Assembly (NCBI GenBank): GCA_052168235.1
Contig: JBQLZK010000006.1
Location: 64,001 to 128,000, forward strand
Direction: 5' to 3'
Origin: Thainema sp.
Lineage (GTDB): Bacteria; Cyanobacteriota; Cyanobacteriia; Phormidesmidales; Phormidesmidaceae
DNA: 64,000 nucleotides
Within the stretch, counting starts at the first letter, position 1, and each line of letters begins with the position of its first letter. The notes beneath the pieces are model-generated. The model was given only the letters and a program-made list of their open reading frames with translations. It was not told the origin of the DNA and searched no databases. The position numbers and the translations under genes are program-made. Shown here one piece after another: positions 370-19,251 of the stretch.

Positions 370-1584
370 CTATTCAGATGGAGATGATGCGGTGGGCGAC
401 ATGACGGCGAATTCGCCGGAGGGCTTGATGTAGCGCCATTGGTCGCCTTGTTTGACGGAGGCGAGGCCGTTGGAGAATTTTCCGGCGCGATCAAACTGGG
501 GTTCAATAATCATCTGGCCGGACTGGTCGATGTAGCCGTATTGGCTGCCAACGAGGACAGCGGCTTTGCCTTCCGAGAAGTTTTCTACATAGTCATATTG
601 AGGTGCGATCGCAACTTTTCCCGTTTTGTCGATATAGCCCCAGCGGTTGTCGATCATCACGCCCGCCAGTCCTTCTGAGAAATCGGTGGCGAATTCATAC
701 TGTAAATCAACGACCACATTGCCATCGGCATCAACGAAGCCCCATTGTGTCCCTTGCCGGACGCGGCCCAGGCTGTCTGAAAATTCAAATACGCCGTCAT
801 ACTGGGGTTCAACAACCCATTCGCCAGTGGGATTGATGTAGCCCCACTTTTCGCTGGCGTTGCGGGCGGCGGCCCGCTGTTCGGAGAAATTCCAGGCGTC
901 TGTGAGTCCAGGCAGAATAGTGAGTTGACCGCTTTTATCCACATAGCCATAGCTGGAGCCCCGTTTGATGGCGGCCAGCCCCTCGGAGAATTTAGCGGCT
1001 AGATCGAACTGGGGCGAAATCACCATGTTGCCGCTGGAGTCGATGTAGCCATATTTCTGCAGCTTCACCGCTGCCAGCCCTTCTGAAAATGGGGAAGCTT
1101 GCTGATACTGCGGCGCGATCGCAAGTTCGCCTGCCCGGTTCAAATAGCCGTAGCCGAGACCGACTTTGGCGATTGCCAGTTCTTCTGAGAAGACGGATGC
1201 TTCTTCAACATTGGGATCAACTGCGATCGCAAGTTTCCCGTCGGGATAGATATAGGCCAGTCGGTCTTCCACGCGAACGAGAGCCATTCCTTCAGCAAAA
1301 TCGGAGGCAAAATCAAACTGCAGCATGATTGAGGATGAAGACGGTGACGAATCGGTATCCTCTAAATCATCTAACGTTTCGGGCGATGTTTCGGGCAATG
1401 TTTCGGATGGTTCAGTTGAAGGAGTGGGTGGCTGAACGTCAGATTTTCGACCCAACCCCAATCTGAGGATAGACAGTTGCCCATCGGGGCGTTCTGGAAT
1501 GCGGTCTTGGCAACCTGTAATCCCGGCAGCGGCGACGATTAGACATCCCAAGGCAGAACGAACGGTGTGAAAGTGAGGTGACAT
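370..1584 (-). CDS. WG (KWG) repeat-containing protein, probable lipoprotein
   Basis: About eight repeats of FSEGLAAVK...YGYIDxxG. N-terminal hydrophobic stretch ends in a lipobox-like ITGC. ATG 1584 is preferred over TTG 1605. Confidence 0.9.
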   Translation of the reverse strand: MSPHFHTVRSALGCLIVAAAGITGCQDRIPERPDGQLSILRLGLGRKSDVQPPTPSTEPSETLPETSPETLDDLEDTDSSPSSSSIMLQFDFASDFAEGMALVRVEDRLAYIYPDGKLAIAVDPNVEEASVFSEELAIAKVGLGYGYLNRAGELAIAPQYQQASPFSEGLAAVKLQKYGYIDSSGNMVISPQFDLAAKFSEGLAAIKRGSSYGYVDKSGQLTILPGLTDAWNFSEQRAAARNASEKWGYINPTGEWVVEPQYDGVFEFSDSLGRVRQGTQWGFVDADGNVVVDLQYEFATDFSEGLAGVMIDNRWGYIDKTGKVAIAPQYDYVENFSEGKAAVLVGSQYGYIDQSGQMIIEPQFDRAGKFSNGLASVKQGDQWRYIKPSGEFAVMSPTASSPSE

Positions 1585-1778
1585 GTGCGGTAGTGTGATG
1601 AGCAATGATTGATTCGTAGCGAACGGGGCGCAGGTTTTCCTCTTTCAGGAGATAGAACTGGCAGGTGAACGCAGCAACACAGCCGCTAGATAGCTATTTC
1701 CCAAGATGCCGGAGAGGACGGCATGATGGAGAAAGGGGCAAACAAATTGCCTACAAAAGTTGACGTTGTCAGAGAACG

Positions 1779-2979: not shown

Positions 2980-5865
2980 TTAGAAGGTAAACTGCAAACC
3001 ACCAGAGACAAGCGGGCCATCATCATCAGTTAGAACCTCTTCTACGCGTAGGAAGATACCAGGCCCTACAGGATCGCCAGTCCCAACCGTCTCTTGAATG
3101 TGATCGCTGTTTTCGTCATAGATGAACTGGTTGAGAGCCACCTGTACCGGATTGCCGTTCACATCTTCAATCAACGTGAACATCGCATCGCCATTCTCAT
3201 CAAGCTGGGGCGCTGTCTTATAAATGGGAAAGAGGTTGCCGTCTGCATCATATCCATAAGCAGGACGCTGTTGCTCACCAAAGGGATTCACAACCAGCTC
3301 GGCGCGTAAACCGACGTCGCCACCATCACTCTGTTGACCAAGAACGACCCCTCTGGCAAAGAGTTCAGCCCGTATTGTATTGGCCGCAGCAGTCCAAGGG
3401 GTGTTACCAAAGTTGAGGACATAGCCAAGCGCCAGTTCTCCCACCAGGGGTGAAAAATTGGGATACGTGTCAGTGCTCGCTTCAGCTTGGCGATTCACTA
3501 GCACCGGATCTCCAACCGTGCTAGTCGATTGAGCATCAATCGTGGAGTCATACAAGAACTCAGTACCATGCAGGATTTCAGTACTATGCTCCTGTGATCT
3601 GTCGGTTACAACTTCTTCAAAGACTTGTTCAGGGTCTAAGGTCACTTTCAAATTAGACAGTATGCCGTCAGAATTAACATCGAAGCTCGCAATTCCCTCT
3701 TGCTGGGTCGTTGTAAAGGTGGTTTCTGTGGTTTCGGTCGTGATGGTATCAACCTGAGTAACCGGGGTATGGAAGGTATCGGTTGTGATCGTCCGAGTCA
3801 GGGTTTCGACTTGTGCTTCATAAAACGATGTGGTTGTCGTAATCACATCTTCCTGATTGCCCAAGCCCAGCGTCAGAGAACCCCGCGCATACAGTCCTCC
3901 CGCTACAGTCGTGGCATAGTAACCTGATTGTCCAGGAGCACCCGGAATCAACTCGTCTGGGGTAGAGAGAATAGTGCCAACTCGCGCATCAGCGTCGCCA
4001 GGGTTTCTATTGTCTACGGTTGCAACAGGGTCGCCACCCGGAGTCTGGACATAGCTGCCTTGAATGCCATTGAAATTGTTGGTAACGGCATTATTGCTTG
4101 GCAGCGTATCTTCTACGGCATAGACTTTGGTTGTTTCGGGCACAAAGTTGCCAGGATGATGAGCGGCAGAAATGACTCGGAATCCACCATCTGCAATTAA
4201 ATAGCCTGCTGCTTTATCTAGATTGACGGCATAAGTCTGATTCAACTGCAGCGCTTGGCCATCCTGTTGGGGAACGAGCGCATAGATCACACGCTGAGCT
4301 TGACCCGCTTCGATGGTTAGGGCATTTGTTACATAACCATCCTGATTCCATTGCGGCATAAATTCAATCCGGCCATCGCTCCATTCAATAATCAGGCCGC
4401 CCACGTTGTCGGCATAGGCAGAATCTCCCCGGCCCACTAAGTTTGGATTCGGAGGGGCAATGATGACATCTTTGTCTGTGGGCAGCTCCAACACGCCGTT
4501 GATAGGCGACAGTTGCTCACCCGGAACTACTTCATCGGGTATAGCAGGTACATAGCCAACGATGCGAGTATTGTGGTTGAGCCCAGTTGGCTGCAGCAAG
4601 CGAGGGCCATCTGGATCAGGATTGACAATGGGATTGCCATACATGTCGATCGCATCCTGATGGGTAGAGTTGAAAAACTGTGTGAGGCCGACGCTCATAA
4701 CTAAACCAGCCTGATTGTTGCCAGCCGAGGGGTTAACGCTGACAGAGCCTGTGAGCAACGTAGGAGCTGCATCCGGATTGTCATTGAGGGGAGCCAACTG
4801 ACCTGTCAGGCTGGCCCCATCGGTTCCGAGCCGAAGTTGGGCAGCGGCAGAATACTGACTGTAGATCAGCTGCTCGTCTTCGGGTGTCCTAACGCCTGCG
4901 GCATGGAATAGCGTATTCGAGTTTGTTGTAGATAGCTCTATTTCTCCATAATCACGGCTTTCCTCAACCTCAGTGAATTGCTGTGTCGAAACCGCTGTCG
5001 TTTCATCGACGGTTTGCTCTTGCCGAACGAATGGGTTAAGCGTCGTTTCGATGACTTCAGTGTAGTAGCTAATCCTGCTACTAATCTCTTGCGTCTTCTT
5101 GATGATGTGAGCTTCACCATCACCTTCTGGAAACAGAAGATAATCGCCATCGTTAAAGTCGTGGTCAAATCCATCTTCGACAGCCAAATCCCCATCATTC
5201 ACGATGTAGATGGCAGATTCATGTTCAGTGGATTGTCCACCATTCTTCCCTGGTCTTAAGTTGAGCACGCGCAGTTCGACTGTATCTTCTGCACCGTAAA
5301 CCGCGTCAACATGAGCGTTCTGGGGCAAGGATTGACCATTTGGATCAATTCGAACGCGATCGCCGCTGACAAAAACCTTTTCAGAACTCTGCAAGGTGCC
5401 ATCGGGACGATACACGTTAACTTCAATGCCTTCACCATAATGATGGTTGCCTGCACTGTGCTGAATAGCGAACCGGGTTCTCATTCGTAGAGTTTCAGTT
5501 TGCAGTTCAAAGCCAGGTGCAACCTGCTGTAATTCCTCATTAACTTGCTCATTAATATTGTCAGTATCGGCTTGAATTTCAATGCTATTAGGAGCCAATT
5601 GGCCTTCAATAACAGATTGATTATGCCGTTCTTGAATATTAAAAATTGGTTCTTGAGGCAAAGGAATGCCAGAGGAATTCCTATCAGAACCTGTGATGAT
5701 ATCAAAAGCGTTTCGATTAACTTGAATTGAACCATCCTGATTGACAAATACATTAGAAGTGGTTTGAGCATTAACGGCTTGAGGGCAGTTGATTCCTATT
5801 GAAATAAGCAATAAAGTTGAAAAGGTGTAAGCAGCTTTTTGGGAGATGAGGGCGATTCTTTTCAT
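2980..5865 (-). CDS. Large secreted hypothetical protein (961 aa), possible outer-membrane protein
   Basis: Long ORF with a Sec-type signal peptide ending AVNA|Q, Thr-rich beta-like segments, and C-terminal GGLQFTF resembling a beta-signal. Confidence 0.75.
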   Translation of the reverse strand: MKRIALISQKAAYTFSTLLLISIGINCPQAVNAQTTSNVFVNQDGSIQVNRNAFDIITGSDRNSSGIPLPQEPIFNIQERHNQSVIEGQLAPNSIEIQADTDNINEQVNEELQQVAPGFELQTETLRMRTRFAIQHSAGNHHYGEGIEVNVYRPDGTLQSSEKVFVSGDRVRIDPNGQSLPQNAHVDAVYGAEDTVELRVLNLRPGKNGGQSTEHESAIYIVNDGDLAVEDGFDHDFNDGDYLLFPEGDGEAHIIKKTQEISSRISYYTEVIETTLNPFVRQEQTVDETTAVSTQQFTEVEESRDYGEIELSTTNSNTLFHAAGVRTPEDEQLIYSQYSAAAQLRLGTDGASLTGQLAPLNDNPDAAPTLLTGSVSVNPSAGNNQAGLVMSVGLTQFFNSTHQDAIDMYGNPIVNPDPDGPRLLQPTGLNHNTRIVGYVPAIPDEVVPGEQLSPINGVLELPTDKDVIIAPPNPNLVGRGDSAYADNVGGLIIEWSDGRIEFMPQWNQDGYVTNALTIEAGQAQRVIYALVPQQDGQALQLNQTYAVNLDKAAGYLIADGGFRVISAAHHPGNFVPETTKVYAVEDTLPSNNAVTNNFNGIQGSYVQTPGGDPVATVDNRNPGDADARVGTILSTPDELIPGAPGQSGYYATTVAGGLYARGSLTLGLGNQEDVITTTTSFYEAQVETLTRTITTDTFHTPVTQVDTITTETTETTFTTTQQEGIASFDVNSDGILSNLKVTLDPEQVFEEVVTDRSQEHSTEILHGTEFLYDSTIDAQSTSTVGDPVLVNRQAEASTDTYPNFSPLVGELALGYVLNFGNTPWTAAANTIRAELFARGVVLGQQSDGGDVGLRAELVVNPFGEQQRPAYGYDADGNLFPIYKTAPQLDENGDAMFTLIEDVNGNPVQVALNQFIYDENSDHIQETVGTGDPVGPGIFLRVEEVLTDDDGPLVSGGLQFTF

Positions 5866-6494
5866 GGCTGAAATCTGTCAATTACATGGTGTTTGGGGGG
5901 CAAGCGCAACTGAGTTTATATCTCGTTGATTGTTGCTTAATGAATACTTGATGCTAAATACATCAAGCATTTACATTCTTGTTCCCGACAGATTTATTAC
6001 CCTTTTGAGTGATATTGATCAGCCGCCGTCCTTGAGTTTAAGCGCTGAAAATATAGAGTGATTGATATTGCCTTTTTGTGTGATAGTTGAAGGCAATAGG
6101 TGTGATAGGTTGCTTTTTTGCCTGTGATCAACGTCACAATGCTGCGGAGGCTGCTAAATTGATTTTCTATTTATTTCTAAATGAAATATGTTCGTTAGTG
6201 CTTTATCTGGAGCGATTTAAGATTTCGAGAACTAAAGGTAAGAATGTGTTGGTACTTCATTGAAGCGTTAATCGACAAATGTACGGTGAAATCATCACAG
6301 TGTTTAGGGCAATACTTGACCCTAGAAGAGATTTTTATCTACCCGCAGGCATATCGCAAATCCATTGCTACCAAGCCACGATGCCTTGGCCAAAGCCAAG
6401 CTTGAAACAATAACAATCTGTTATTGAGATTTACTGCTGAAAAGTGCGATCGCAGTTATCGAGCATGTCTCGACTTGGGCTTAAGCTAATATCA

Positions 6495-9326
6495 CTAGTC
6501 GAACTGAGGTGGTACTTCCTGGGGGGACAACTGATCTTCAACTGAGGGGCGAGGTGCATCTAGACCACCAGCACCGCCATTAGCCCCTGCTGCTGCCCCA
6601 TTGGCTCCACCAGCGGCATCTTCTTCGCCACCTACAACGACTGTATCGGGTTCTTCCGGTGTTGGGTCAAAGGTCTCAATCGTCACCGAGCGCACCACCT
6701 GTTCGCCTGCGCTATTGCTTACCTGGAGGCTGACCACGGTGGTGTTTGGCTGAGGACTCAGCGGTAGCGGAATGGCTCCCTGAAGCGGGACAGTGCCGGG
6801 TGCCGGCTGGAGCTGAGCGGTGGTGCCGGGGTTCGGCTCAATCGCCCAAGACAGCACCAAATTGGGTAACGGTCGGCCTTGATCGACTGGAATCACATAT
6901 TTGGTGCGGGCTGTTTCGCCATTTAGTTGAAACTTGAGAATCCGGGGGGGCCGGGGCACGATTTTGACCGGATCGGTCGTGCCAGCAATCGGTTCTTCCG
7001 GCATCCCCGATTTGGGAATCACCGTCAGCTCAAAGATGTAGTTCCCAGCCTGTCGGGCAGCCGTGGGAATGTTGCGGCAGATCAGATTCACTTCCACCAC
7101 GCAAAACGGCTCCAGGATCTCTGGCAGTCCCTCGCGCAGGTCAATCTGGACAGGCGGCAGAACCACTGCTCCTTCAGCGTTTTTGCCCACAATCTGAATG
7201 GCGCGAATTTGCTCCGGTTGGGACAGCGCCCAGTTTAAGCGCACCGTATAAGGATCGGCGGCGGGATTAACGCTGAGCTTTTCGGGGGTAAATGGATTGG
7301 CGTCGTTGGTGGGTCTAGCTGCGGGTGCTTGAGCGTTAGCTGAATTAGTGGTGGTAGTGGTTGCGATCGCAACTGGAGGGGCCGCCGGATAGCTAGGCTG
7401 GGTAGACTCAAACACCAGAATTTCCGGTAGCGGTTCGGGCGTAACTGTTACTACTGGGGTTTGCTGCTGGAGCGGCTGACCGCCTCGCCGACTGGGTTCT
7501 GGAATTAGCGTCAGGACAAAGGTGTAGTTGCCGGCGCGACGCGCATCGGTGCGCAAGTTGCGGCAGGTGAGCAGTTGCGCCTGAATGCTGCAAAATGGCT
7601 CCAGATCTTCAGGTATTTGATTGCCAGCAAACTCATAGGTTAAGGGGCCACTGATCACTGCTCCTTCTGCCGATTGGCCGATGATTTCGAGTGACTGAAT
7701 GCGTTTGGGATAGCTGACCTGAAAGCCAAGCCGCACCGCATCGCCATCGGCGACAGCATATTCGGTATCCTCCGGCGCAAAGCGAACAATTGCAGGGGAC
7801 GGGGGCGGTCGCAGCAGAAACCACCAGATCAGCCAGACAAACGTCGCCAAACCTAAAATCGCTAGCAGAATCAGCGGTAGAATTTGCCACCAGGGTCGGG
7901 ACTCCCAGACGATGTAGCCCTGCATGGGAATATCAGGGAGGGCACGACCATCGGCATCAGTCACCTGGACGCCAAAGTTGAGCAACCGCCCACCACCAAT
8001 TAGCGGGCGCTTCCACTGATTCTTGGGCTGTACATAGATCTCGCTCGTCAAGGTTTGACGCGGCGATAAATGCAGCTCTGACGGTTCCAGCCTGTATTCA
8101 CACTGGTCGCCGCCATCGAGGTGCATGACGGCAATTAGCAGATGACGAGGAATGTTGCCCTGGTTGGTGGCCTGAACGGCAAACAGTCCGGCATTGGTCT
8201 GTACGCGACTGATGAGGGTGCGAAAGCTCAGATCCACCTGGTAAATCGGCTGGATTTCCAAATAGAGCAGATCAAGCAGCGCTAAATCGGGATTATTTTC
8301 CGACAGGAGGCGCAACGTCGCGATGTAGCTGCCAGCCAGAGCTTCAGCAGGAGGGGTGATCATCAGCAGAATGATGCCGCGCGCTCCTGGGTTGAGGTCT
8401 AAATAGTCCTCTGGCAGCGATAGGCCAATATCTTGTGCCCCTTCTGGATAGGTAATGGAAAACCAGTTGGTCGGTAAGTCACTACACCGCAACCGAAATC
8501 GATCAACCCGATCGCCCCGGTTATAGACCATCACCTGAAATTGGAGGACGGTGCCGGGTAATAAGCTGGCGGGCTGAGCGGTGGTTGTGGTGGGCTGGAG
8601 AGCAAAGGTGGGATCGCTGACCTGTATTTCACTTTCGACGGGCGGCAGCACCTGCAAAATCTGGGCGTAGCGCAGCGGCGGATAGTTGGGATAGTGGCGC
8701 GGGGCGTCAACGGTCAGCCAGTAGCGATGGGTATCGGGCAGTGCATCAACGGGGATTTGGAACCGGAAGAGGACTTCGCCGCTTTGACCGGGACTGAGGG
8801 CCAGCCGTTCTTGGGTGGATTCACACCAGGAGTAAAGCGCGGGTGGCAAATCATCGATAAAGATGTCAATAATCGCGCTCTGATTGCCTTTATTCGTAAT
8901 CGTGGCGCTGAGATCGAGGCTGGCACCGGGTGTCACCACATCTTCGCCGGAGGAGTTGAGGATGACAGTGATGGGCTGTTCGGGGGCAGCGTTGGTCGAG
9001 ATAATGCTGCTGCTGGTGTCGCGATTCAGTAGCTCGGCATCGACGTAATATAGGGGATTGCCTGGATCTGAAGAGGTGACGATCTTGACATAGCCCTGCT
9101 GGACGAGATCGTCTAAAACAGTCGGTAATCGAAGATCGGTGTAGTCATCAACTCCCAACGCGGCCTCAATTTGTTGGGCACTTGCTGCTCCCTGCCGCAC
9201 CAGGCACAAGACAACCTGTCGATGAGATTCGGGTAGCGCAAATAGATCAGCAACGCTCATGTCAGTAGAGCGATCCTGGCCGACAGCAGATTGGGAGGGA
9301 TCGGAATCGAATTGGCGTCCGGTCAT
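6495..9326 (-). CDS. CIS-associated single-pass membrane protein with Ig-like (COG1470-like) repeats
   Basis: Last gene of the baseplate operon. Has repeated N-x-G-N/D Ig-like modules, one TM helix (WWQILPLILLAILGLATFVWLIWWFLL) and a duplicated Cys-pair domain. Confidence 0.75.
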   Translation of the reverse strand: MTGRQFDSDPSQSAVGQDRSTDMSVADLFALPESHRQVVLCLVRQGAASAQQIEAALGVDDYTDLRLPTVLDDLVQQGYVKIVTSSDPGNPLYYVDAELLNRDTSSSIISTNAAPEQPITVILNSSGEDVVTPGASLDLSATITNKGNQSAIIDIFIDDLPPALYSWCESTQERLALSPGQSGEVLFRFQIPVDALPDTHRYWLTVDAPRHYPNYPPLRYAQILQVLPPVESEIQVSDPTFALQPTTTTAQPASLLPGTVLQFQVMVYNRGDRVDRFRLRCSDLPTNWFSITYPEGAQDIGLSLPEDYLDLNPGARGIILLMITPPAEALAGSYIATLRLLSENNPDLALLDLLYLEIQPIYQVDLSFRTLISRVQTNAGLFAVQATNQGNIPRHLLIAVMHLDGGDQCEYRLEPSELHLSPRQTLTSEIYVQPKNQWKRPLIGGGRLLNFGVQVTDADGRALPDIPMQGYIVWESRPWWQILPLILLAILGLATFVWLIWWFLLRPPPSPAIVRFAPEDTEYAVADGDAVRLGFQVSYPKRIQSLEIIGQSAEGAVISGPLTYEFAGNQIPEDLEPFCSIQAQLLTCRNLRTDARRAGNYTFVLTLIPEPSRRGGQPLQQQTPVVTVTPEPLPEILVFESTQPSYPAAPPVAIATTTTTNSANAQAPAARPTNDANPFTPEKLSVNPAADPYTVRLNWALSQPEQIRAIQIVGKNAEGAVVLPPVQIDLREGLPEILEPFCVVEVNLICRNIPTAARQAGNYIFELTVIPKSGMPEEPIAGTTDPVKIVPRPPRILKFQLNGETARTKYVIPVDQGRPLPNLVLSWAIEPNPGTTAQLQPAPGTVPLQGAIPLPLSPQPNTTVVSLQVSNSAGEQVVRSVTIETFDPTPEEPDTVVVGGEEDAAGGANGAAAGANGGAGGLDAPRPSVEDQLSPQEVPPQFD

Positions 9327-9500
9327 CTTACAAGCATGGGTACAAGCGGATTGGTGAGTTCAAGTTTCAGGATTTCGATTCAGGTCTTTATTTGTATCAC
9401 ACGGTAGGCAGTGCCTATTGTCCTAGTACATTGAGCTTAAACTAGGTGGGTTAAGCGATCGCAAAACGCGACGTTGGAGTGCTTTTTAGGGGATTAACAC

Positions 9501-9522
9501 GGTGGGCACTGCCCAACCCTAC
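9501..9522 (-). repeat. GTAG-type REP-like element
   Basis: Minus strand reads GTAGGGTTGGGCAGTGCCCACC, directly after the stop of the WD40 gene. Confidence 0.6.
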
Positions 9523-9526
9523 AGAT

Positions 9527-11890
9527 TTATGGACAGCTACTAGATTTGTCAGCACTTGAATACAAATTGACCCGATGATTATCTCCTCCGCTGGTTACTA
9601 ACACTCGATTGGGCAGGCGAATGATATCGACGCTGTTGATTGGTTTACGGGAGCGACCCAGGCGTTTTCCTTTCAGAACCCTACCATCGGCATCCAGTGA
9701 CCACAGCATCACTGTGCCATCTTCGCCGCCACTGGCTAGATAACAGGCATCATCGCTCAGCGCGACCGAACGCACTGCTTGGCCATCATGACCGTCCGAC
9801 CAGCTATCTAAATTCGTACAGCGTCCTTGATTTTCCAGACAGTCGTTGAGATCCCAGAGGGTAATGCGGCCCTGGGTGTCAGCGGTGGCTAGATGACTAG
9901 GCCGACGGGTGGCGCTGGATAGGCTAACGATGTAGTCATTCGCGTCGCCAGCCGGATAGCTGAGTGAGATGGGGTTGGAGCTGGGTTCCGTAGTCTGCCA
10001 GAGTACCAGTCGGTTGAATCGACCTGCGATCGCAAGTGTCTCCTGCTCACTGCCCACCAGCGCAATCGCCTGCACCGCAAAGTTAAGCGACTTTTCAGCG
10101 ACCGACGGCAGGACAACCGGATCAGCCTGATTTGGATTAGCTCGATTGAGCCGATTACCGACACCGAGATCCCACTGCACCACGGCACCGCTGCCGTGGC
10201 CGCTGAATAAGTAGCGGGCATCGGGGCTGAACTGGAGGGCAAACACGCGATCGTCTGCCTGCGGTTCGCCACCGGGACGGAACTGGAGCTCAAATTCCTG
10301 CTGATCGCGCAGCAGATCCCAAATTTCCACCTCGCCGTTTTCAAATCCCAGTGCGATCGCATCATTATTGATGGGCCGATAGCTGGCAACTCGCACCGCC
10401 TTGTCAAACTTAAGTGGATTGCCCAACCTTCGCTTCATCCGGCCAGTTCGTAGCCAGCGCCGCACGGTTTGGTCATCGGAGGCGCTGACTAATTCATTGG
10501 CCTGACCATCGAAGCGCACCGAGTTGACTGGGCCGCGATGCTGGTTGCGCAGCAGTGGCGGGATGAAGAAGAGTCCTACCAGCGCCACCAAGGCCAAAAG
10601 CTGGAGCCAAAACGCCACGTGGGGGCGAGCCGTTAGCGTCAGGGTTTCAGAAACAGGGCGACGCTCAATATTGCTCAGTAAGTTAACGCTGTTTTCCTCG
10701 GCAGGATTGGCCTCTAGCGGATTGGGCGGCAGACTAGCCATCGGCGCAGAAGGGGCAAGCCGGGGATCATTGCTCGCGAGAGAACTAGCGGCTGGAGCAA
10801 ATCGTCCGTCCGGATCGAGATCGGGCGTGACGCGAAACTGATACTGGTGCGGCCAGCCCAGCAGCGGTCGTTTGGCCTGGATGTAAACCTGAGCCGTGCT
10901 GACCGATCCGGGCTTCAAATCAATCCGGGCTGGCATGACTGTGATGCGATCGCGAAAATCGGACGCGGTGCGATCGCGCTTTAGCCAGCGTCGCCAAGCT
11001 GGAATCGGGGGCGGTATAATCCGCAGACTGGCTGGTTGTGCCCAATTGCTTTGGTTGTTGAGCTGAACAGTGTAAATGCCCTGCTGAGTGCGATCGCGGT
11101 TGGCTCTCTCGTCCAGTTCAGCATCAATGGTGATGTCGTCTGATGCCACTGCTGCCGCCGGAATGATGGACTGAATCGGCTCCACATCCAGCTCCATCAC
11201 GCCCCAAGGCTGCACATACAGCGTACCGCCCACCTGCACCGAGGATGAGAGCGACTGGAGCGCCTCCACCTGAAAGGCGTAGGTTTGACTAATCGCTTCC
11301 GTAGAGGCCGGAATCTGGCAGACAAATAGCATACGCGATTCGCTCTGGGGTGGAATTTGCAGCCGTCGTTCGCTGCCCTCCACCAGCCAGTCGCTGGGTA
11401 AGCCCTTCAGCCGCAGCAGCACGTTGCCCATCGTCCGGTTCGGATTCAGCAAGCGCACTGGAATTTCAACGCTGTGTCCCGGTAAGCCGCTGAGCTGGGG
11501 TGCAGCCAGCTCGAGCTGGGGCGGAAACACGCCGCTGCCCTCGATAATCAGCGTGACCACCCGCCGATCTTCTTCACGCAGCTCCAGCGAAAAGACGCGC
11601 ACGGTCAGCGTCATCTTGCCGACGAATCCGCCGGGAACGGGCGGCACGTCCAGAATCGAAATTGAGAACTGGGTGCGATCGCCCGCTGGAATTTTGGCCG
11701 ACAGGTCAGGGGCGAGCCGATACCAGTGATCGGTGGCATTGATATCGACGCCGGAGGCCAGCAGCTCAAGCTGAAAGGTGGCAAACGACGAACTGAGATT
11801 CGACACGGCCACCTCAAACCCCTGCGGCTGGCCCCCTGGCTGAAACCGCAGCGTTTGCGTAGATAAATCAGTAGTGAGCAATTTAGACAT
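9527..11890 (-). CDS. CIS-associated membrane protein: Ig-like N-terminus, TM helix, C-terminal WD40 propeller
   Basis: WD40 signatures (HRGPVNSVRF...SASDDQTVRRW; GHDGQAVRSVAL...SGGEDGTVMLW) and TM segment FWLQLLALVALVGLFFIPPLL. Confidence 0.85.
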   Translation of the reverse strand: MSKLLTTDLSTQTLRFQPGGQPQGFEVAVSNLSSSFATFQLELLASGVDINATDHWYRLAPDLSAKIPAGDRTQFSISILDVPPVPGGFVGKMTLTVRVFSLELREEDRRVVTLIIEGSGVFPPQLELAAPQLSGLPGHSVEIPVRLLNPNRTMGNVLLRLKGLPSDWLVEGSERRLQIPPQSESRMLFVCQIPASTEAISQTYAFQVEALQSLSSSVQVGGTLYVQPWGVMELDVEPIQSIIPAAAVASDDITIDAELDERANRDRTQQGIYTVQLNNQSNWAQPASLRIIPPPIPAWRRWLKRDRTASDFRDRITVMPARIDLKPGSVSTAQVYIQAKRPLLGWPHQYQFRVTPDLDPDGRFAPAASSLASNDPRLAPSAPMASLPPNPLEANPAEENSVNLLSNIERRPVSETLTLTARPHVAFWLQLLALVALVGLFFIPPLLRNQHRGPVNSVRFDGQANELVSASDDQTVRRWLRTGRMKRRLGNPLKFDKAVRVASYRPINNDAIALGFENGEVEIWDLLRDQQEFELQFRPGGEPQADDRVFALQFSPDARYLFSGHGSGAVVQWDLGVGNRLNRANPNQADPVVLPSVAEKSLNFAVQAIALVGSEQETLAIAGRFNRLVLWQTTEPSSNPISLSYPAGDANDYIVSLSSATRRPSHLATADTQGRITLWDLNDCLENQGRCTNLDSWSDGHDGQAVRSVALSDDACYLASGGEDGTVMLWSLDADGRVLKGKRLGRSRKPINSVDIIRLPNRVLVTSGGDNHRVNLYSSADKSSSCP

Positions 11891-11964
11891 GGTTGAAGAC
11901 CAGGTTAAACCTCTGAATGGGTGAGGTGGGTTCGGCTGTGCCGTCTTGAAGAGAATCGCATGGG

Positions 11965-12031
11965 AAACCCCAATTTATTTTTTGTCAGCAGCTTGCTGAG
12001 CAAGCTGCTGACAAAAAATAAATTGGGGTTT
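11965..12031. repeat. Perfect 67-bp palindrome (33-bp arms) centred on GCTGAGC
   Basis: AAACCCCAATTTATTTTTTGTCAGCAGCTTGCT-G-AGCAAGCTGCTGACAAAAAATAAATTGGGGTTT, touching the stop codon of the upstream gene. Confidence 0.95.
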
Positions 12032-13404
12032 TAACTGTTTTGCATCATCATGCGCCGCCGCCAAGCAAAGTGGAGAATATTAATTCCCAATTCTTGAGCA
12101 CCGCGAATTTGGTCGCGGGTCAGGGCCAGATTTTCGTCATAGCCCCAGCCGCTGGATAAGCTGCCGATGACCAGAATAATGCCGCCCCAGTTCAGCACTT
12201 CAATCGTGGTTTGATTCAGCACCGGATAGCGGACAAAGCGGAACGGACGACTGCGTAGTGGATGCTGACCGTTGAGCTGTCCCGTTCCCGAAAGCTGAAT
12301 GCCCACCTGTTCCGCAAAGGTGGTGATGGAACTCACCAATGTCTCAACCTCTTCGGCCACACAAGTGTGAATTTCGCCCAGCTCCGCTACAAATTCGCGC
12401 TCCAGATGGGGCAGCTGAGCCGATTCCGTGCGGATGGCCGCGAGGGCGCTGCGCACGTCATACTGCACCTGCATTAGCTCATCCAAATTGGTTTGATAGG
12501 CAGGTACTTCAATGATCAGTGTGCCGCCGTGCTGAAGATATTGGCCAATCGGTTGCGCTTGGACAGCCGTTAAACCTGCTAGCTGGCTATGGCGCATATA
12601 CAGCAGATCATGGTTGGCGAGGAGCGCTTGGGTGGCGGCGGTCGTCACTTGTCCGGGATTGGTTGGTTCTAATCCGCCAAGGGAGAGCGTTTCCAGCGAT
12701 AGATTGGTCACTGAGCCACCACTCTGCAATGAGGGATAAAGTACCTCTAGCGACTCAAACAACCCCGCAAAATCCAGCTCCGTCTTCCAGGTCTCACTCT
12801 CGTTAGTTTCCAGTTGGGCGACCTTGATTAAACCTTGAGGTCGCGATCGCACAATTTGCCGAAAGCGCAGATCCACCTGATTGGCGGTTGGGAAAAAGCA
12901 GTCTGTTGGCATTTGCAGTTCCACGACACCCGGCTGTAGCTCAATGCGGCACAGCTCCACGTCTAATTCATCCGGTGGCGAATTACGCTCATCCAGCCGG
13001 AATGTTTCTTGCACAACCGTCGTTTCGCTGGTGATTGCCTTTAGCTGATCCGGGTCAACATAGCTGAGGACAAGATAAACCGTAATCGTTGATGAAACTG
13101 GCGTGGCTGCAATCCGATAGGTAACAGGTGACGGCACAACGATCGGATTACCCTTGGCATCAATGGCCATCCCCGGCTGCACTTGAAGCCAACGTCCATC
13201 GCGATACTGGGAGCTGATTTCACTAGGCGCAGGAATCACTTGGACATGCAGGCCGCAGACAATACCGGGCTGGTTCAGCGCCTGAAAATGCAGGTTCTGC
13301 CGCTGCCGATGATAGGCATGGGCCACCTGCCAGCGATCGGCGGTGAGCAGCAGACCGTCGCTAACCTGGAGGCGTTCGAGTGGCTGAATCGGAGGCGTAG
13401 ACAT
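12031..13404 (-). CDS. DUF4159-domain CIS accessory (tail-fibre/crown-like) protein
   Basis: N-terminal LERLQVSDGLLLTADRW...YHRQRQ...PGIVCGL...QPGMAIDAKGNPI resembles CIS fibre-attachment domains. C-terminus YLQHGGTL...LGINILHFA is DUF4159-like. Confidence 0.75.
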   Translation of the reverse strand: MSTPPIQPLERLQVSDGLLLTADRWQVAHAYHRQRQNLHFQALNQPGIVCGLHVQVIPAPSEISSQYRDGRWLQVQPGMAIDAKGNPIVVPSPVTYRIAATPVSSTITVYLVLSYVDPDQLKAITSETTVVQETFRLDERNSPPDELDVELCRIELQPGVVELQMPTDCFFPTANQVDLRFRQIVRSRPQGLIKVAQLETNESETWKTELDFAGLFESLEVLYPSLQSGGSVTNLSLETLSLGGLEPTNPGQVTTAATQALLANHDLLYMRHSQLAGLTAVQAQPIGQYLQHGGTLIIEVPAYQTNLDELMQVQYDVRSALAAIRTESAQLPHLEREFVAELGEIHTCVAEEVETLVSSITTFAEQVGIQLSGTGQLNGQHPLRSRPFRFVRYPVLNQTTIEVLNWGGIILVIGSLSSGWGYDENLALTRDQIRGAQELGINILHFAWRRRMMMQNS

Positions 13405-13555
13405 GATGATGACTGATGGTGTTGTTAAACAAAGGATGATTAAAGTGTTGTCGGATGGGCGTTGTCCACCCGTTCAACCGAGAAGATTGGGGTAGGTTTA
13501 GCGCTAGCGTAACCTAATGACATCATCAAAATGGCTGAAATTAATTGAAATTAAG

Positions 13556-14641
13556 TTAGTTTTCACCTATAGAAAGAACGTTCGTGATGGTCACCACGGG
13601 AGCAGGGAGCCGTTCGACCTGCAAATCGTAGGAGCAAAAGGCGGGTTTTTCTTGCTCAATAATGGAGTGGACTAAGGTTTCATCAATCGGATAGTCTCCT
13701 TCTGGACGTAAACAAATTGAAAAGTGAAAAGGCCGACTGCCGCCCAGGGTGGCATCTTGACCAATGTGGGCGACGCCTAGCACAAAGCCCTGGCTAAAGT
13801 TTTCGGTAATGCTGATGTGTTTGCTCGCCTCATCCCGCAGATGTTCGTCCAGCGGCAAGCCCGTTGCTAAATGCAGGAAAAAGCGCAGACCACGCCGAGT
13901 GCCGCGCCAGCGATAGATTTGCATAGCGTGGCGGATGAGAAACCGTTGGCGCTCTATGGAAATCGGAGCTTGGAACGACCAGCCGACCCAGTGAGACAGA
14001 AAAGGCAAAAAAGCCGTCGGTGCAGTGAGCGGATCAAGATGCGCCCACATGGTTTCCAGGGTGTTCACCGACGGCTCAAACGTTTCCTCAAACAGCTTGA
14101 GAAAACGACCCACAAAATCAATATCGCGGTACAGATCGGGCAGGAAATTCAGGTACAGACTGCGAGGCCGAATGTGAAGCTGAAACGGTCGTGTTTCTCG
14201 CTGGGGCTGTCCCGCTTCTCCATCCCGAAGGGTTAATGTGAGCTGTCCTTGGTAGTCTAACTTGAGCGGCACCTGCTGACCAGAGTAAGACTGCTCAAAA
14301 AAGTCAGTTGTGATCGCAAAATATAGAACCGCATCCAGTTGATGATCCGGCGGCAGTTCTGAGCCTTCAACTCCACCAATCCGGCACCACTCGGCGGGAA
14401 AATCGCCATTCACCTGCAAGTTGATCTGAAGTGGATTCGCCCCGTAGTTCTGCACCTGGACAATCAGTTCGCTTGGCTCCCCTGGACGAATCAGCAAGCT
14501 GAGTGGATGCGCCAGATCTGGCGCTTGGAAAAACGTATCGTCTGCCAGTGCCACCGCCAATTCCGACGATGGCACCGCATCTGGCACCTGCATCGGCGTC
14601 AGCAATAGGCGATAGGTTTGACCAGAGCGAGCTTGTGTCAT
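13556..14641 (-). CDS. Phage tail protein I-like baseplate wedge subunit (CIS)
   Basis: YLNFLPDLY...FVGRFLKLFE...LDPLTAPTAFLPFLSHWVGW...YRWRGTRRGL...IIEQEKPAFC motifs; adjacent to the baseplate J-like gene. Confidence 0.88.
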   Translation of the reverse strand: MTQARSGQTYRLLLTPMQVPDAVPSSELAVALADDTFFQAPDLAHPLSLLIRPGEPSELIVQVQNYGANPLQINLQVNGDFPAEWCRIGGVEGSELPPDHQLDAVLYFAITTDFFEQSYSGQQVPLKLDYQGQLTLTLRDGEAGQPQRETRPFQLHIRPRSLYLNFLPDLYRDIDFVGRFLKLFEETFEPSVNTLETMWAHLDPLTAPTAFLPFLSHWVGWSFQAPISIERQRFLIRHAMQIYRWRGTRRGLRFFLHLATGLPLDEHLRDEASKHISITENFSQGFVLGVAHIGQDATLGGSRPFHFSICLRPEGDYPIDETLVHSIIEQEKPAFCSYDLQVERLPAPVVTITNVLSIGEN

Positions 14642-14662
14642 CCAGGTACCCTTAACTAACCT

Positions 14663-16873
14663 TTAACTAATCAAACTAATGGTGTGGGTTGAGCGCAGCT
14701 GATTGTCGGCCCACGAGCAAATCAGCCCCAAGCTGCCGGGCCGCACGATGTTGTCCGGCGCAGGCGAGCGTCGCCACTGATCCTGATGCCGCCGGAACTC
14801 AAACAGCAGCACGGCTCCCAAATAGCGCACCCCAGCAGTGCCCTGAATCAGAGAAATAATGTCCGAAGGGTAAACAGGTGCCCCAAACGGCCAGCCGTTG
14901 CCGTCTCGTCCCCCCGTCAGCGGATTCAAAAACCGATAGAGCGACACCTGAATCTGCTGCAAAATCGCCTGCTGCGCCTGGGAATTAGCGTATTCTGGAT
15001 CGATACCTACCTCTGTTTGCACCCCTACTCCAACATATTCCGACTCCTTGAGCTGCACCTCAATCCCCAGCAGTCGCCGCTCGTTCAGATACCCCTCAAT
15101 CTGCTGGCGCAACTGCGGCGTCATCAAAAACTGATCGGGCGGAATGCCCACGCCCCGCTCGATCCCCATAATGTTGGTCTGCGGCACCACATAGACATCC
15201 ACCACACCTGGTTTATGACTCTGCTTGGGACAGCGACAGCGAGCCACCGCACCCTGCCCCCCCTGAAGCGTCAGCGCCTCAAAATCCTCTGGTGTCACCG
15301 CGCGATCGCGCGTGCGTAACATCCGGGGCACTCGCAGCACCGCATCTTCCAGCGATTCGGCATCGGCTCCGTTGCGGGCCGGAGTGTGGTTGGTCACTGC
15401 CGACACGTAGGGCACCGCTGACTTGACAATCCGCAGACTGTGGCTCTGGACATTGCCCTTGCGTCCACCGCCCGTCCGGTAGCGAGACATGCGCAGAATG
15501 GCTCCGCGTGGAGGTGCCGCACCATACTGGCGCTCCATCAAAGTTGCGATCGCACTTCCTTGCGCTCTTAAAGACGACATTTGATTCAGCGGCGAGCCTT
15601 GATCCATCTGGGTAATTGCCCGAATCTGAGTCTGCTCCTTCAACTGGCTCGGCTCTCGAATTAGTGGCCCAAACTGCAGTTCTCCCGTTAAGGAATCTAG
15701 CGTATAGTGGCGATCCTCTGGCCCTGAATCAGCAAAATCGTTCACCTCTGCCCAAATCTGTGGCAGCCCGTCCGGTGGCGTCACGATCAGATGTTCCCCC
15801 TCCCGACGCGGCAGAATCGGCGCTCCCTGAATCTGGAACTTCTGCCCCGCCAGTCCGTTACTCTCACCCAGCAGCTCATCCCGAACCACCGTACACTGAC
15901 TGGCATCAATCGTGCCGCCAATCGAGCGCACCGACACCCGCAGCAAGCGCGGCGAACTACTATACCCCGTCTGATTCTGATTTGCTTGCGGCGGCGTATA
16001 CACACAGCGCACCCAGCGGCCCTGATAGGTGGCGAACGATGTGACTGGAAATTGCTGCGGCAGGTGCAGCACCACCTCTGCTTCCTGCACAGGCGTCGTC
16101 CCGTCACCAATCTCATGGAAGCTAAATCCCTTCGTATGGTCATCCGCTTCCCGCAGCAAAATCGGCACCCAGCGTCCCCCGTCCCAGGCCTCCCAGCGGC
16201 GGGGCGGACGGTCGGGATTAATACCCGTGGAGGTGGCCGCTTCCCCGGACAGCGCTAGCGCCAACACATTCCCCTCAATTGGCTGATCGGGATCAAACAC
16301 AATATATAGACAGTTTCCTGGCTGCGGGCGCTCACTGAAAATCATCTGCTCTCGCCCCGACCAGGTGCCATCGGACTGGCGCGACCACAGGTTAGCAAAG
16401 CGATCGCGCAAAATCGTTGGCTGCGTCTCCAGTAGTTCCGACGTCAGCAGGTGATTGATTTCCGGTAGCCCAATCGTCAGTGTTCGCTCGGTGCTGAAGA
16501 TAATTGCCTCTTCGGTTTCCGTCCGCTCGGTGGCAACTTCCACGCCTACCGGAATCTGATACACCGTCGGTAGGCTAGCGGTTAAGTAAAACGTTGCTTC
16601 GGTAAACGCGGGCGCAGGCGGCTGGAGCCGAACCCCCAACAGTTCCAAAAAGCCCACGTAGTTGCGGCGCGGAATCTGGTTGAACCGCATCAGCATCTGG
16701 TCAGTCAACCAGGCAAACAGCTCAATCATTGTTACGCCTGGGTCGCCCGGATTATAGTTTGTCCATTCGGGACAGTACCGGGGAATCCGTAGAATGCACT
16801 CTTCGACCAGGTCTTTAAAGGCGCGGTCGTCGAGGTCGGATTTGGGCAGATTGGGCAGGAAGTCGAAGTCCAT
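14663..16873 (-). CDS. Putative baseplate assembly protein (baseplate J-like, Afp11/Cis11-type)
   Basis: LDDRAFKDLV...PEWTNYNPGDPGVTMIELFAW, YRTGGGRKGNV, GADAESLE, RAVTPEDFE and GWPFG motifs. Confidence 0.92.
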   Translation of the reverse strand: MDFDFLPNLPKSDLDDRAFKDLVEECILRIPRYCPEWTNYNPGDPGVTMIELFAWLTDQMLMRFNQIPRRNYVGFLELLGVRLQPPAPAFTEATFYLTASLPTVYQIPVGVEVATERTETEEAIIFSTERTLTIGLPEINHLLTSELLETQPTILRDRFANLWSRQSDGTWSGREQMIFSERPQPGNCLYIVFDPDQPIEGNVLALALSGEAATSTGINPDRPPRRWEAWDGGRWVPILLREADDHTKGFSFHEIGDGTTPVQEAEVVLHLPQQFPVTSFATYQGRWVRCVYTPPQANQNQTGYSSSPRLLRVSVRSIGGTIDASQCTVVRDELLGESNGLAGQKFQIQGAPILPRREGEHLIVTPPDGLPQIWAEVNDFADSGPEDRHYTLDSLTGELQFGPLIREPSQLKEQTQIRAITQMDQGSPLNQMSSLRAQGSAIATLMERQYGAAPPRGAILRMSRYRTGGGRKGNVQSHSLRIVKSAVPYVSAVTNHTPARNGADAESLEDAVLRVPRMLRTRDRAVTPEDFEALTLQGGQGAVARCRCPKQSHKPGVVDVYVVPQTNIMGIERGVGIPPDQFLMTPQLRQQIEGYLNERRLLGIEVQLKESEYVGVGVQTEVGIDPEYANSQAQQAILQQIQVSLYRFLNPLTGGRDGNGWPFGAPVYPSDIISLIQGTAGVRYLGAVLLFEFRRHQDQWRRSPAPDNIVRPGSLGLICSWADNQLRSTHTISLIS

Positions 16874-16882
16874 GTTGGGTGA

Positions 16883-17078
16883 GGAGTGAGGAGGAAGGCG
16901 AGAGGAGTGGGAGGGTGGATGGGTGAGGGGGTAGATGGGTGGGAGACTAAGGGAGAGGGGGGTAGATGGGTGGGAGGGTAGATGGGTAGGAGTTGTGTAG
17001 GGTGTGTTAGGTGTTAGGCGTTAGCCGTAACGCACCAGGCTTCTTACGCCTCACTCCTCTCGCCTTCCTCCTCACTCC
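16883..17078. repeat. Intergenic cassette: 27-bp perfect inverted repeats enclosing G-tract repeats and a REP-like element
   Basis: GGAGTGAGGAGGAAGGCGAGAGGAGTG (16883-16909) and its exact complement (17052-17078). Repeated GGGTAGATGGGT units and GTAGGGTG...GTAACGCACC (16997-17036) lie inside. Confidence 0.85.
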
Positions 17079-17080
17079 CT

Positions 17081-17497
17081 TCACTCAGGAGACATGAGAT
17101 AAAAGGGGTAAACAATGCTGCGGCGGACAGGGTTGTTTTTGGGGTGGTACTGGATGATGATGTCCACGCGACCGCGTAGCGGATCGGGTTCGGTCGCGAT
17201 TTGGTCGAGGATGATGCGCGGCTCCCATTTTTCGAGGGCTTCTTGGACGTGGAGCCTTACTAGCAGCAGGGTTTCGGTGCTCATGGGCATGAAGGTGAGT
17301 TCGGACAGCCGACAGCCGAAGTCGGGCCGATAAACTCGTTCGCCAATCCGCGTTCGCAGAATAATCTGAATCGATTCTTCGATATTTGTGCGGCCTGCGC
17401 TGAGCTGTAAATCCCCCTGGACGCTAATCCGCATGGGGAAACACCAGCCACGCCCCAGATGGGCATCGGGTTGTGTAGACTCGGCAAAGTTCGGCAT
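17081..17497 (-). CDS. GPW/gp25 family baseplate protein
   Basis: LGRGWCFP...IEESIQIILRTRIGERVYRPDFGC...LEKWEPRI...VYPFYL is the gp25 signature. Confidence 0.95.
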   Translation of the reverse strand: MPNFAESTQPDAHLGRGWCFPMRISVQGDLQLSAGRTNIEESIQIILRTRIGERVYRPDFGCRLSELTFMPMSTETLLLVRLHVQEALEKWEPRIILDQIATEPDPLRGRVDIIIQYHPKNNPVRRSIVYPFYLMSPE

Positions 17498-17623
17498 TGC
17501 TGACGGCCACCTATACCACTGACTGCCGCCAGCTTAGCCATCTGGTTTCTGAGTTCCTATTCGCCAAAAGTCGAATACGGAGGTGAGGGTAATCACCCTT
17601 GGTTGGTGCAAGATGTGAGCATA

Positions 17624-18148
17624 CTAATTTTGAACCGTCTGTTTTTGATAGATGGTCGGAATGGCTATTGTTAGCAACATCATCAGGTTGGCGAGCCAGA
17701 ACAGCACGATGCTGGTAAAGCCAAGCAACTCTAAATGGGAGAGCGAGAGCTGGTTAAAGCCATCAAATAACTGCCACAGTCGAAACGCAGTATAGCAAAA
17801 GCCGATGGGCACGACGACGCTAGCAACGAGCCAGCGGCTGAACGTTGACTCTGAGAGGAGCTGTACGACTACGACTAGAACATAGCTACTCCAGAATGAC
17901 AAAGCGGCAGGTTGCTGCCGAGCTTGAATCCACAAGGCCAGTGGGACTAAAACTCCCAAAACCGACGCCAGCTTGACCCAAGCTTTCAGAAATGCCCCCT
18001 GTTTGTCGTTGAAGCCAATTTCGGCGGAAAAGGGCAGCCGTTGCGTTTTAACGCCGTAGCCATAACCAATGGCGATGCTAGTTGCGATCGCAATAAATAG
18101 CGCTATCACCAGTCCGTTATCTATTATGACTGCCTCCTGATTCAACAT
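17624..18148 (-). CDS. Hypothetical integral membrane protein
   Basis: 174 aa with about five hydrophobic segments. Confidence 0.7.
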   Translation of the reverse strand: MLNQEAVIIDNGLVIALFIAIATSIAIGYGYGVKTQRLPFSAEIGFNDKQGAFLKAWVKLASVLGVLVPLALWIQARQQPAALSFWSSYVLVVVVQLLSESTFSRWLVASVVVPIGFCYTAFRLWQLFDGFNQLSLSHLELLGFTSIVLFWLANLMMLLTIAIPTIYQKQTVQN

Positions 18149-18251
18149 CGATAAAAAAGGAAGTGCGATCGCACTTGCCTCTAATTTCTACTTTGAATGA
18201 TGGAAGCTAGTCTTGGAGCATGAATGAACGAAATCAGCGTTTGATCTTGGG

Positions 18252-18428
18252 ATGCGACTGATTATCCTGAAACACTACATTCGCGCCCACCAAATGGATG
18301 TCACCAACCGCTGGAAGCATTTTCTAGACGATGAACGCTACCGCCAACTCTTCCAGCACCCAAAACTCTGGGACTATTCCGAACGTATCTTCGGGCACTT
18401 TGCCGGAACAGAAGCATTGAAGTTTTAA
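18252..18428 (+). pseudogene. Probable 3' gene remnant (58 codons)
   Basis: Reads MRLIILKHYIRAHQMDVTNRWKHFLDDERYRQLFQHPKLWDYSERIFGHFAGTEALKF*. Protein-like, with an in-frame stop shortly upstream; below the ORF-track cutoff. Confidence 0.35.
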
Positions 18429-19241: not shown

Positions 19242-19251
19242 CAGTAGGGGT

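Follow-up and report, generated by a model that had tools for sequence, protein, structure and literature searches.

How a cytoplasmic contractile injection system (CIS) finds the membrane and fires is an open question, to which CisA gives an answer only for Streptomyces. Here, we address this question at a CIS baseplate operon in a 64,000-nucleotide stretch of DNA from the cyanobacterium Thainema sp. (contig JBQLZK010000006.1, positions 64,001 to 128,000 of the forward strand; hereafter, the window). The last two genes of the operon encode large proteins, to which we refer by their open reading frame (ORF) labels P0002 and P0001; all coordinates are window positions, and all six ORFs of the operon lie on the minus strand. 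A first-pass annotation of the window had placed two large bitopic proteins at 6495..11890, where both ORFs are indeed found, and had proposed that they form a dedicated docking or trigger complex for the CIS. Based on the analyses below, we suggest that P0001 and P0002 probably constitute a paralogous, bitopic and membrane-proximal module that docks the baseplate of a Streptomyces-type (IId, or cytoplasmic-CIS-like) CIS in filamentous cyanobacteria. The docking function is well supported by the comparative genomic context, while a function as a trigger is only hinted at.

The operon has the gene order gp25/Cis9, J/Cis11, I/Cis12, a fusion of a Cis13-type N-terminal domain to DUF4159, P0002, and P0001, with intergenic gaps of 21-207 bp (Table 1). 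AlphaFold2 models of P0001 (from a 91-sequence alignment; mean predicted local distance difference test [pLDDT] 82.9) and of P0002 (59 sequences; mean pLDDT 86.3) each contain three N-terminal beta-sandwiches of immunoglobulin (Ig)-like fold, one transmembrane (TM) helix, and a large C-terminal part; in P0002, a disordered linker separates the third sandwich from the TM helix. Consistently, a hydropathy scan for segments above 1.6 on the Kyte-Doolittle scale detected exactly one hydrophobic segment in each protein, at aa 478-507 of P0001 (nt ~7806-7895) and aa 423-449 of P0002 (nt ~10544-10624), and none at either N-terminus. Thus, the Ig-like repeats without a signal peptide and the single TM helices that had been proposed at 7811-7891 and 10555-10615 are borne out. 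The same is true of the C-terminal parts, which had been described as a WD40 propeller in one protein and Cys-paired repeats in the other. P0002 matches the Pfam WD40 family (PF00400) with 72.8 bits against a cut-off of 27 and the WD40 protein 2ymu with a phmmer E-value of 1e-28, and its conserved cysteines are C684 and C691 (59/59 sequences), C716 (58/59), and C786 (57/59). In P0001, the pair C579/C588 is present in 91/91 homologues and the pair C742/C750 in 87/91, the remaining four having gaps at these positions; moreover, 78/91 homologues end in the motif LSPxELPPQF[D/E/N].

By sequence, the Ig-like domains of P0001 fall below the Pfam cut-offs (Ig_VWA7, 24.7 bits with a cut-off of 27; NPCBM_assoc, 22.2 bits with a cut-off of 24.4); P0001 homologues carry matches to these two families and the source name "COG1470 family protein." Because the only PDB structures that Foldseek returned for the whole P0001 model were generic multi-Ig arrays (such as hydin-type, titin, and alpha-2-macroglobulin), "Ig-like" is, for these models, a description at the level of the fold and denotes no specific family. 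Searches of P0001 against PDB sequences gave chance-level matches only (E 0.2-1, mostly to coiled-coil-like stretches), and the best score of its trans-side part against the ESM Atlas, 0.82, was within the chance range. In the case of P0002, HMMER searches with the N-terminal 450 residues against 1.84 billion representatives identified 217 proteins at E ≤0.001; nearly all full-length representatives of this family are 700-850 aa long, and the C-terminal WD40 domain is kept in 15/15 of the distant representatives that were sampled.

P0001 and P0002 are related to each other and to the baseplate. The two proteins match in BLASTP (E 1e-6), and their family profiles align across the Ig modules and the TM helix with an hhalign probability of 98.6% (E 1.1e-15); we conclude from these alignments that they are paralogues over the Ig stack and the TM helix. 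The first-pass annotation had also noted a similar Ig-like module at the N-terminus of the gpI-like wedge protein, and we found this similarity in the profiles as well. Cis12 (P0005) has an N-terminal Ig-like extension (aa 1-165, nt 14147-14641), which is kept in 52 related loci and aligns over one Ig module with the family profiles of P0002 (hhalign probability 91%, E 1e-6) and P0001 (92%, E 7e-7). Because P0005 aligns with chain 9gtp_E (190 aa) only in its core, from residue 165 onward, the extension is, judged by this alignment, an addition of the cyanobacterial lineage.

To analyze the conservation of gene order, one genome per species was scanned with P0001; the 80 best of 230 relatives were retained and yielded 79 loci. 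Gene-order counts were made on the same strand and only in loci with enough upstream DNA (in the case of P0002, >2.5 kb of flank). The gene immediately upstream of the P0001 homologue is P0002 in 62/67 loci, and the genes for DUF4159, gpI, J, and gp25 lie upstream of it in 53/56, 52/56, 49/52, and 47/52 loci, respectively. The genomes of the loci lacking P0002 (L033, L061, L062, L066, and L081) all encode J (61-67% identity) and a P0002 orthologue at other sites. All named records among these best 79 loci are cyanobacteria, mostly filamentous (Leptolyngbya, Nodosilinea, Nostoc, Calothrix, Coleofasciculus, Laspinema, and Oscillatoria), and the carriers of the cluster include strains that are not metagenome-assembled genomes, e.g., Leptolyngbya sp. 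PCC 7375.

The first-pass annotation had made its proposal depend on co-occurrence with CIS genes across genomes. In 301 genomes drawn evenly from the phylum, in which a full-length match with ≥49% identity was counted as a J orthologue, P0001 is present in 18 genomes and J in 17, of which 16 have both (given as counts without a statistical test; related genomes are not independent). The 17th genome with J, G014, has diverged P0001- and P0002-like ORFs, which were found by profile search only. Among the others, the J match of G092 is fragmented, and P0001-like and WD40 ORFs, both weak, lie no more than ~10 kb away from it; G248 has only a weak P0001-like ORF (28% identity). P0001 is absent from all five genomes with only weak J matches; these presumably carry other CIS lineages, with ORFs of ~1200 aa resembling those of the thylakoid-anchored CIS (tCIS). 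Altogether, the conserved gene order, the co-occurrence with J, and the Ig module in common with Cis12 support that P0001 and P0002 are a dedicated accessory of the CIS baseplate module, as had been proposed.

Which CIS this accessory belongs to can be read from the structural genes. J (P0006) matches the chain "Baseplate protein J-like" of 9GTP, the baseplate of the Streptomyces coelicolor CIS, with a phmmer E-value of 2.4e-108, and the sheath protein matches 8bky/9gtp with an E-value of 2.8e-109 vs. 3.3e-48 for Anabaena All3325 in 7b5h. Based on the J match and the two sheath E-values, we place the machine with the Streptomyces cytoplasmic CIS and not with the Anabaena tCIS. The relevant passages of the Streptomyces papers name this cytoplasmic subtype IId (PMC10066040). 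The first-pass annotation had missed this lineage as well as the sheath, tube, and spike genes, which lie on other contigs. In G190, a full-length J of this lineage (61% identity, beside a P0001 homologue) occurs together with weak J-type matches in ORFs of 333 and 1205 aa, a type of match (in ORFs of ~1200 aa) known here from genomes otherwise lacking this lineage; by these matches, two CIS lineages may coexist in one cyanobacterium.

The gene between cis12 and the pair encodes P0004. Residues 16-147 of P0004 match the N-terminal part of CIS13_fam (NF053767) with an E-value of 2e-14 and 53.6 bits, far under the equivalog cut-off of 370, and 61/61 aligned members of the P0004 family have this match; the first-pass annotation had not recognised this Cis13-type domain in the DUF4159 protein. 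The match to DUF4159 itself scores 25.7 bits with a cut-off of 25.9, and most relatives carry PF13709 (DUF4159). P0004 and its family profile gave only chance-level matches against PDB sequences (E 0.2-1). The hydropathy scan detected no TM-grade segment in P0004, P0005, or P0006. P0004 is likely a baseplate-side adaptor of the Cis13 type that lacks a TM helix, and the TM helices of the operon are supplied by the next two genes, P0002 and P0001. Because neither P0001 nor P0002 has a CIS13_fam match in the NCBIfam scan, these two proteins are, on this evidence, not members of the Cis13 family.

The closest structural logic, by analogy, is that of the Anabaena tCIS, in which the passages on Cis13 describe an N-terminus that binds the baseplate and a C-terminal TM helix that enters the thylakoid membrane, deletion of the helix freeing the particles (PMC8894136). 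As described there, the baseplate is anchored through a baseplate-extension domain together with a TM helix; P0004 has a Cis13-family N-terminal domain, and Cis12 has an extra domain in both systems. However, the lineage differs by the sheath E-values given above, and P0004 ends in DUF4159 without a TM helix, while two separate large proteins supply the helices.

The closest functional analogue appears to be CisA (Sco4242). The published passages describe CisA as a bitopic protein whose cytoplasmic N-terminus is for the most part unstructured and is followed by a single TM segment and by a C-terminal domain that resembles periplasmic substrate-binding domains and is predicted to pentamerise; its N-in/C-out orientation was shown experimentally, and it is required for contraction (PMC12237407). 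By AlphaFold prediction, CisA contacts Cis11 via its disordered cytoplasmic part (PMC12237407, PMC10066040), and it is encoded just downstream of cis11 and sco4243 (PMC10066040). The first-pass annotation had called CisA Ig-containing, and this was not confirmed: the passages give the domains listed here, and "Ig-like" occurs 0 times in the main text. As described in these passages, the likeness to CisA lies in a single-pass protein encoded behind cis11/cis12 of the same CIS lineage, with an N-in/C-out orientation that is predicted for P0001 and P0002 and was shown for CisA, and in the proposal that CisA, tail fibres being absent, brings the baseplate to the membrane and allows firing. Similarly, P0001 and P0002 are encoded directly downstream of IId-type baseplate genes (in the order J, I, Cis13N::DUF4159, P0002, and P0001). 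In contrast to CisA as it is described, here there are two paralogues with ordered stacks of three Ig-like domains followed by a WD40 domain or Cys-paired sandwiches, and the Cis13N::DUF4159 gene lies between the pair and cis12. CisA did not come up in the PDB sequence searches. Compared by described domains only, P0001 and P0002 look like an independent solution to the problem that CisA solves.

The TssJ/L/M complex of the type VI secretion system resembles the proposed role of the pair in being a dedicated membrane complex that docks the baseplate of a contractile tail from the cytoplasmic side; however, P0001 and P0002 are bitopic and Ig-based, belong to another CIS lineage, and matched none of TssL, TssM, and TssJ in the Pfam and NCBIfam scans. 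Our literature search, which covered main texts, found no description of the P0001 or P0002 family, no paper joining DUF4159 with contractile systems, and none joining COG1470 with a baseplate; two papers joining contractile injection with WD40 and cyanobacteria appear, by their listings, to be unrelated; the main text of a catalogue of receptor-binding domains of extracellular CIS has 0 mentions of "transmembrane" or "WD40."

According to the docking model, P0001 and P0002 would insert with the N-terminus in the cytoplasm and the C-terminus on the far side, such that the stacks of three Ig-like domains stand in the cytoplasm. The Ig stacks would contact the periphery of the baseplate via the Ig extension of Cis12 or via the DUF4159 domain of the Cis13-like adaptor, which in this lineage would have lost the TM helix that anchors Anabaena Cis13. 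The two TM helices would then hold the baseplate to the membrane, either the plasma membrane or the thylakoid membrane. On the far side, the WD40 domain of P0002, presumably disulfide-bonded, and the sandwiches and tail of P0001 could interact with one another or with a partner in the periplasm or lumen. As a more speculative step, the state of the far side might be relayed to the baseplate and gate firing, as proposed for CisA.

In its strongest form, this last step would make the pair a receptor-gated trigger, in which a far-side sensor composed of the WD40 domain and the sandwiches and tail fires a cytoplasmic machine from inside the cell; we regard this as tentative and rather unlikely. 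In such a scheme, the LSPxELPPQFD tail may be a ligand of the propeller, and a change in the sensor, be it through a bound ligand, damage to the envelope, or redox cleavage of the four disulfides, would signal via the TM helices and Ig stacks to Cis13N::DUF4159 and the periphery of Cis12, supplemented in some lineages by a dCache-HAMP-cNMP sensor. The hint is circumstantial and comes from this sensor: a homologue of a ~640-aa membrane sensor is encoded in the neighbourhood of the cluster in 20/79 related loci, mostly between the DUF4159 gene and P0002, while in L022, L023, and L025 a dCache protein is encoded just after the P0001 homologue instead. Two examples (L074:5773-7686 and L082:5639-7561) have dCache, HAMP, and cNMP-binding domains in Pfam; the cluster in the window has no dCache-HAMP-cNMP sensor gene. 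If true, the pair would be a second, independently evolved answer to the problem of CisA and, among contractile systems, the first WD40 sensor outside the cytoplasm.

The recurrence of sensor genes in related clusters would also fit a membrane-tethered regulatory pair that controls the expression or assembly of the CIS without touching the particle. ToxR/CadC-type bitopic regulators combine a winged helix at the N-terminus with a single TM helix and a Cys-paired domain on the far side, and P0001, although not P0002, resembles them in all three respects; moreover, some P0001 homologues are annotated "transcriptional regulator." However, the winged-helix-like unit of P0001 is weak by sequence (Pfam TrmB/MarR, E 0.02-0.09) and is missing in 8/18 aligned homologues, many tblastn matches to P0001 begin near residue 110, ~360 residues of Ig-like domains lie between this unit and the membrane, and P0002 has no DNA-binding domain. 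The Ig module in common with Cis12 and the location of the two genes in the tail-fibre position behind the Cis13-like gene also count against this reading, and we find a purely regulatory function unlikely.

The docking model requires the Ig stacks to be cytoplasmic. Given that the homology of the two families extends across the TM helix, we consider the N-in/C-out orientation very likely for both. Ahead of the TM helices, 420-480 residues are not preceded by a signal peptide; P0001 has the N-terminal winged-helix-like unit; the same Ig module is present on the cytoplasmic baseplate protein Cis12; and the P0002 family has more lysine and arginine residues on the N-terminal flank of the TM helix (32-45 sequences vs. 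1-7). Also, P0349 (1043 aa), a relative of P0002 in the representative library, has HisKA and receiver domains ahead of its Ig-TM-WD40 body. This HisKA-receiver arrangement could also be a gene-calling fusion. The trans sides have a mean of 4.0 cysteines in both families, with an even count in 90/91 (P0001) and 56/59 (P0002) sequences and all four positions conserved. Disulfides can form in both far-side compartments of cyanobacteria, the periplasm and the thylakoid lumen, and the sequence does not separate the plasma membrane from the thylakoid membrane as the site.

Several observations weigh against the docking model, and those on orientation are the first. In the P0001 family, more sequences have the excess of lysine and arginine, which is slight, on the C-terminal flank of the TM helix (54-64 vs. 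4-9 sequences at 10-15 residues); by the positive-inside rule alone, this would argue for the reverse orientation. Additionally, classical WD40 repeats are usually cytoplasmic, and Ig domains of the COG1470, CARDB, and NEW3 types, to which the Pfam matches are weak, are usually extracytoplasmic. With the N-terminus out, the Ig stacks would be fibre-like extracytoplasmic receptors, and the WD40 domain together with the C-terminal domains of P0001 would dock the baseplate from the cytoplasm. Set against the N-in features above, among them the exactly four conserved cysteines in each C-terminal part, this reversed topology is quite unlikely.

The second group of observations against the docking model concerns gene location. 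G234 has an adjacent P0002-P0001 pair, and J was not found in this genome. In addition, of the 15 other sampled genomes with both, only six have P0001 on the strand of J and no more than ~10 kb away from it; the best-scoring 79 loci overstate synteny relative to the even phylum sample. In favour of the model, the P0002-P0001 pair is still adjacent, as in G234, in six of the nine sampled genomes in which P0001 is away from J (G152, G162, G260, G206 [both copies], G119, and G107); P0001 has moved alone in G029 and G137, and the genes are on separate contigs of a fragmented assembly in G208. Five Nostoc-like genomes, G152, G162, G206, G234, and G260 (four from genus g28, one from g42), have one in-frame TAA within the P0002 profile match. 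The coordinates of this match reach into the beginning of the P0001 match, by ~10 bases in G206 and ~100 in G234, and the TAA most likely reflects an alignment that continues beyond the stop codon.

As for expression, three metatranscriptome runs of one study contain RNA-library contigs of a relative with ~93% identity (380 differences over an alignment of 5338 bases). P0001 and P0002 are spanned by one contig (6623-11960) in two runs, in one of which it continues through P0004; in the third, a contig covers the P0001-P0002 junction and P0002; and in two of the runs, gpI and J, the latter mostly or entirely, are covered by a further contig. The parts of the window not covered by these contigs (5500-6367 and 17652-18085) carry no evidential weight. 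These contigs weakly suggest that the genes are expressed as a unit; they could be DNA carry-over, they come from a relative and not from this strain, and a contig is not a transcript.

That about half of the sampled genomes encode the pair at a distance from the wedge genes, together with co-occurrence with the CIS lineage and large disulfide-bonded trans-side domains, would be compatible with a receptor or recognition module at the cell surface or envelope (a self/neighbour marker or a target) that is co-inherited with the CIS but lies outside the docking site of the producer. In the closest relatives, however, the operon is continuous on one strand, the RNA-library contigs bridge its genes, and the conserved sequence, for the most part, belongs to the side predicted to be cytoplasmic and is homologous to the extension of a baseplate protein; we therefore consider such a module very unlikely. 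That unrelated envelope proteins merely hitch-hike beside the baseplate genes, as the location of some P0001 homologues among unrelated genes (L061) could suggest, was already disfavoured and is hardly credible given a gene order conserved from Leptolyngbya-like to Nostoc-like genomes, the genome-level co-occurrence (16/17 and 16/18), and the narrowness of the families with their 217 representatives.

Table 1. Genes of the baseplate operon and predicted domains of P0001 and P0002 (window positions)
Feature	Residues (aa)	Position (nt)	Strand	Basis
gp25/Cis9-like baseplate wedge protein, first conserved operon gene		17081..17497	-	Pfam GPW_gp25 E 1.4e-21
Baseplate J / Cis11 (P0006)	736	14663..16873	-	Pfam Baseplate_J; NCBIfam TIGR02243 E 1.3e-190
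gpI / Cis12 (P0005)	361	13556..14641	-	Pfam Tail_P2_I; NCBIfam TIGR02242 E 2.1e-35; CIS12_fam core
Cis13-type N-terminal domain + DUF4159 fusion (P0004)	457	12031..13404	-	NCBIfam CIS13_fam; Pfam DUF4159
P0002	787	9527..11890	-	Ig x3, TM helix, WD40 propeller
P0002, Ig-like beta-sandwiches x3	5-116, 125-226, 230-357	10820-11878	-	AlphaFold2 model
P0002, TM helix	427-448	10547-10612	-	AlphaFold2 model
P0002, WD40 propeller, all-beta	455-780	9551-10528	-	AlphaFold2 model, pLDDT mostly >90
P0001	943	6495..9326	-	Optional winged-helix-like unit, Ig x3, TM helix, three beta-sandwiches, tail
P0001, winged-helix-like unit (optional)	25-103	9018-9254	-	AlphaFold2 model
P0001, N-terminal Ig-like beta-sandwiches x3	119-226, 240-358, 364-474	7905-8972	-	AlphaFold2 model
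P0001, TM helix	479-504	7815-7892	-	AlphaFold2 model
P0001, beta-sandwiches x3 after the TM helix	513-629, 696-790, 796-886	6669-7790	-	AlphaFold2 model
P0001, disordered C-terminal tail	891-943	6498-6656	-	AlphaFold2 model

The remaining CIS genes lie elsewhere in the genome. The gp25 gene of the operon is the only gp25 match in the genome, and the single sheath match is on another contig. The sheath locus (L003:1280-18232, contig C29) encodes a Pvc16-type cap, one sheath protein, and four gp19-type and one CIS_tube-type tube proteins; on a further contig, C62, a VgrG-like spike (696-aa ORF) occurs by itself. Because the baseplate, sheath/tube, and spike genes are on separate contigs, the CIS is split across at least three loci of the genome. 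The sheath locus also contains three small ORFs of no family and, at its end, a Fic/DOC-domain protein, a possible effector. A 2645-aa ORF without a Pfam family (L003:7385-15322, C29:66385-74322) separates a gp19-type tube gene from the CIS_tube (Cis7-like) gene; it far exceeds the usual length of a tape measure and may be a tape measure, cargo, or both.

Around the operon, a 961-aa protein (2980-5865) and a 174-aa ORF upstream of gp25 had no tblastn match in the 79 related loci, and we therefore excluded them from the system. The 961-aa protein, encoded on the minus strand directly downstream of P0001, has a hydrophobic, leader-like N-terminal start, and its best family, Cupin_3 (E 0.004), is unconvincing. 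A promoter and terminator scan of 5500-19500 found fewer sites than in shuffled sequences and was uninformative. At ~4 kb from the operon (21749-24093, plus strand), a gene of the spore-photoproduct-lyase family (E 3.9e-97) lies beside a UvdE UV-endonuclease gene (E 1.5e-66). UV leads to ghost cells in Anabaena according to the passages on this point in PMC8894136, and these two genes may be of interest in that respect. Finally, 370-1605 (minus strand) encodes a 411-aa protein with seven WG-containing beta repeats (Pfam WG_beta_rep, E 5.6e-93).

A study of Roseiflexus notes, in its passage on this point, that close cisA homologues are absent there and that the firing mechanism may therefore differ. 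The locus described here gives conserved candidates for membrane docking in a second phylum, namely a Cis13-type adaptor without a TM helix and two bitopic paralogues, the far-side domains of which, a WD40 propeller and Cys-paired sandwiches, look built for binding. By the lineage comparisons above, filamentous cyanobacteria have, in addition to the Anabaena tCIS, a CIS lineage of the Streptomyces type, which bears on programmed cell death and the formation of ghost cells in these organisms.

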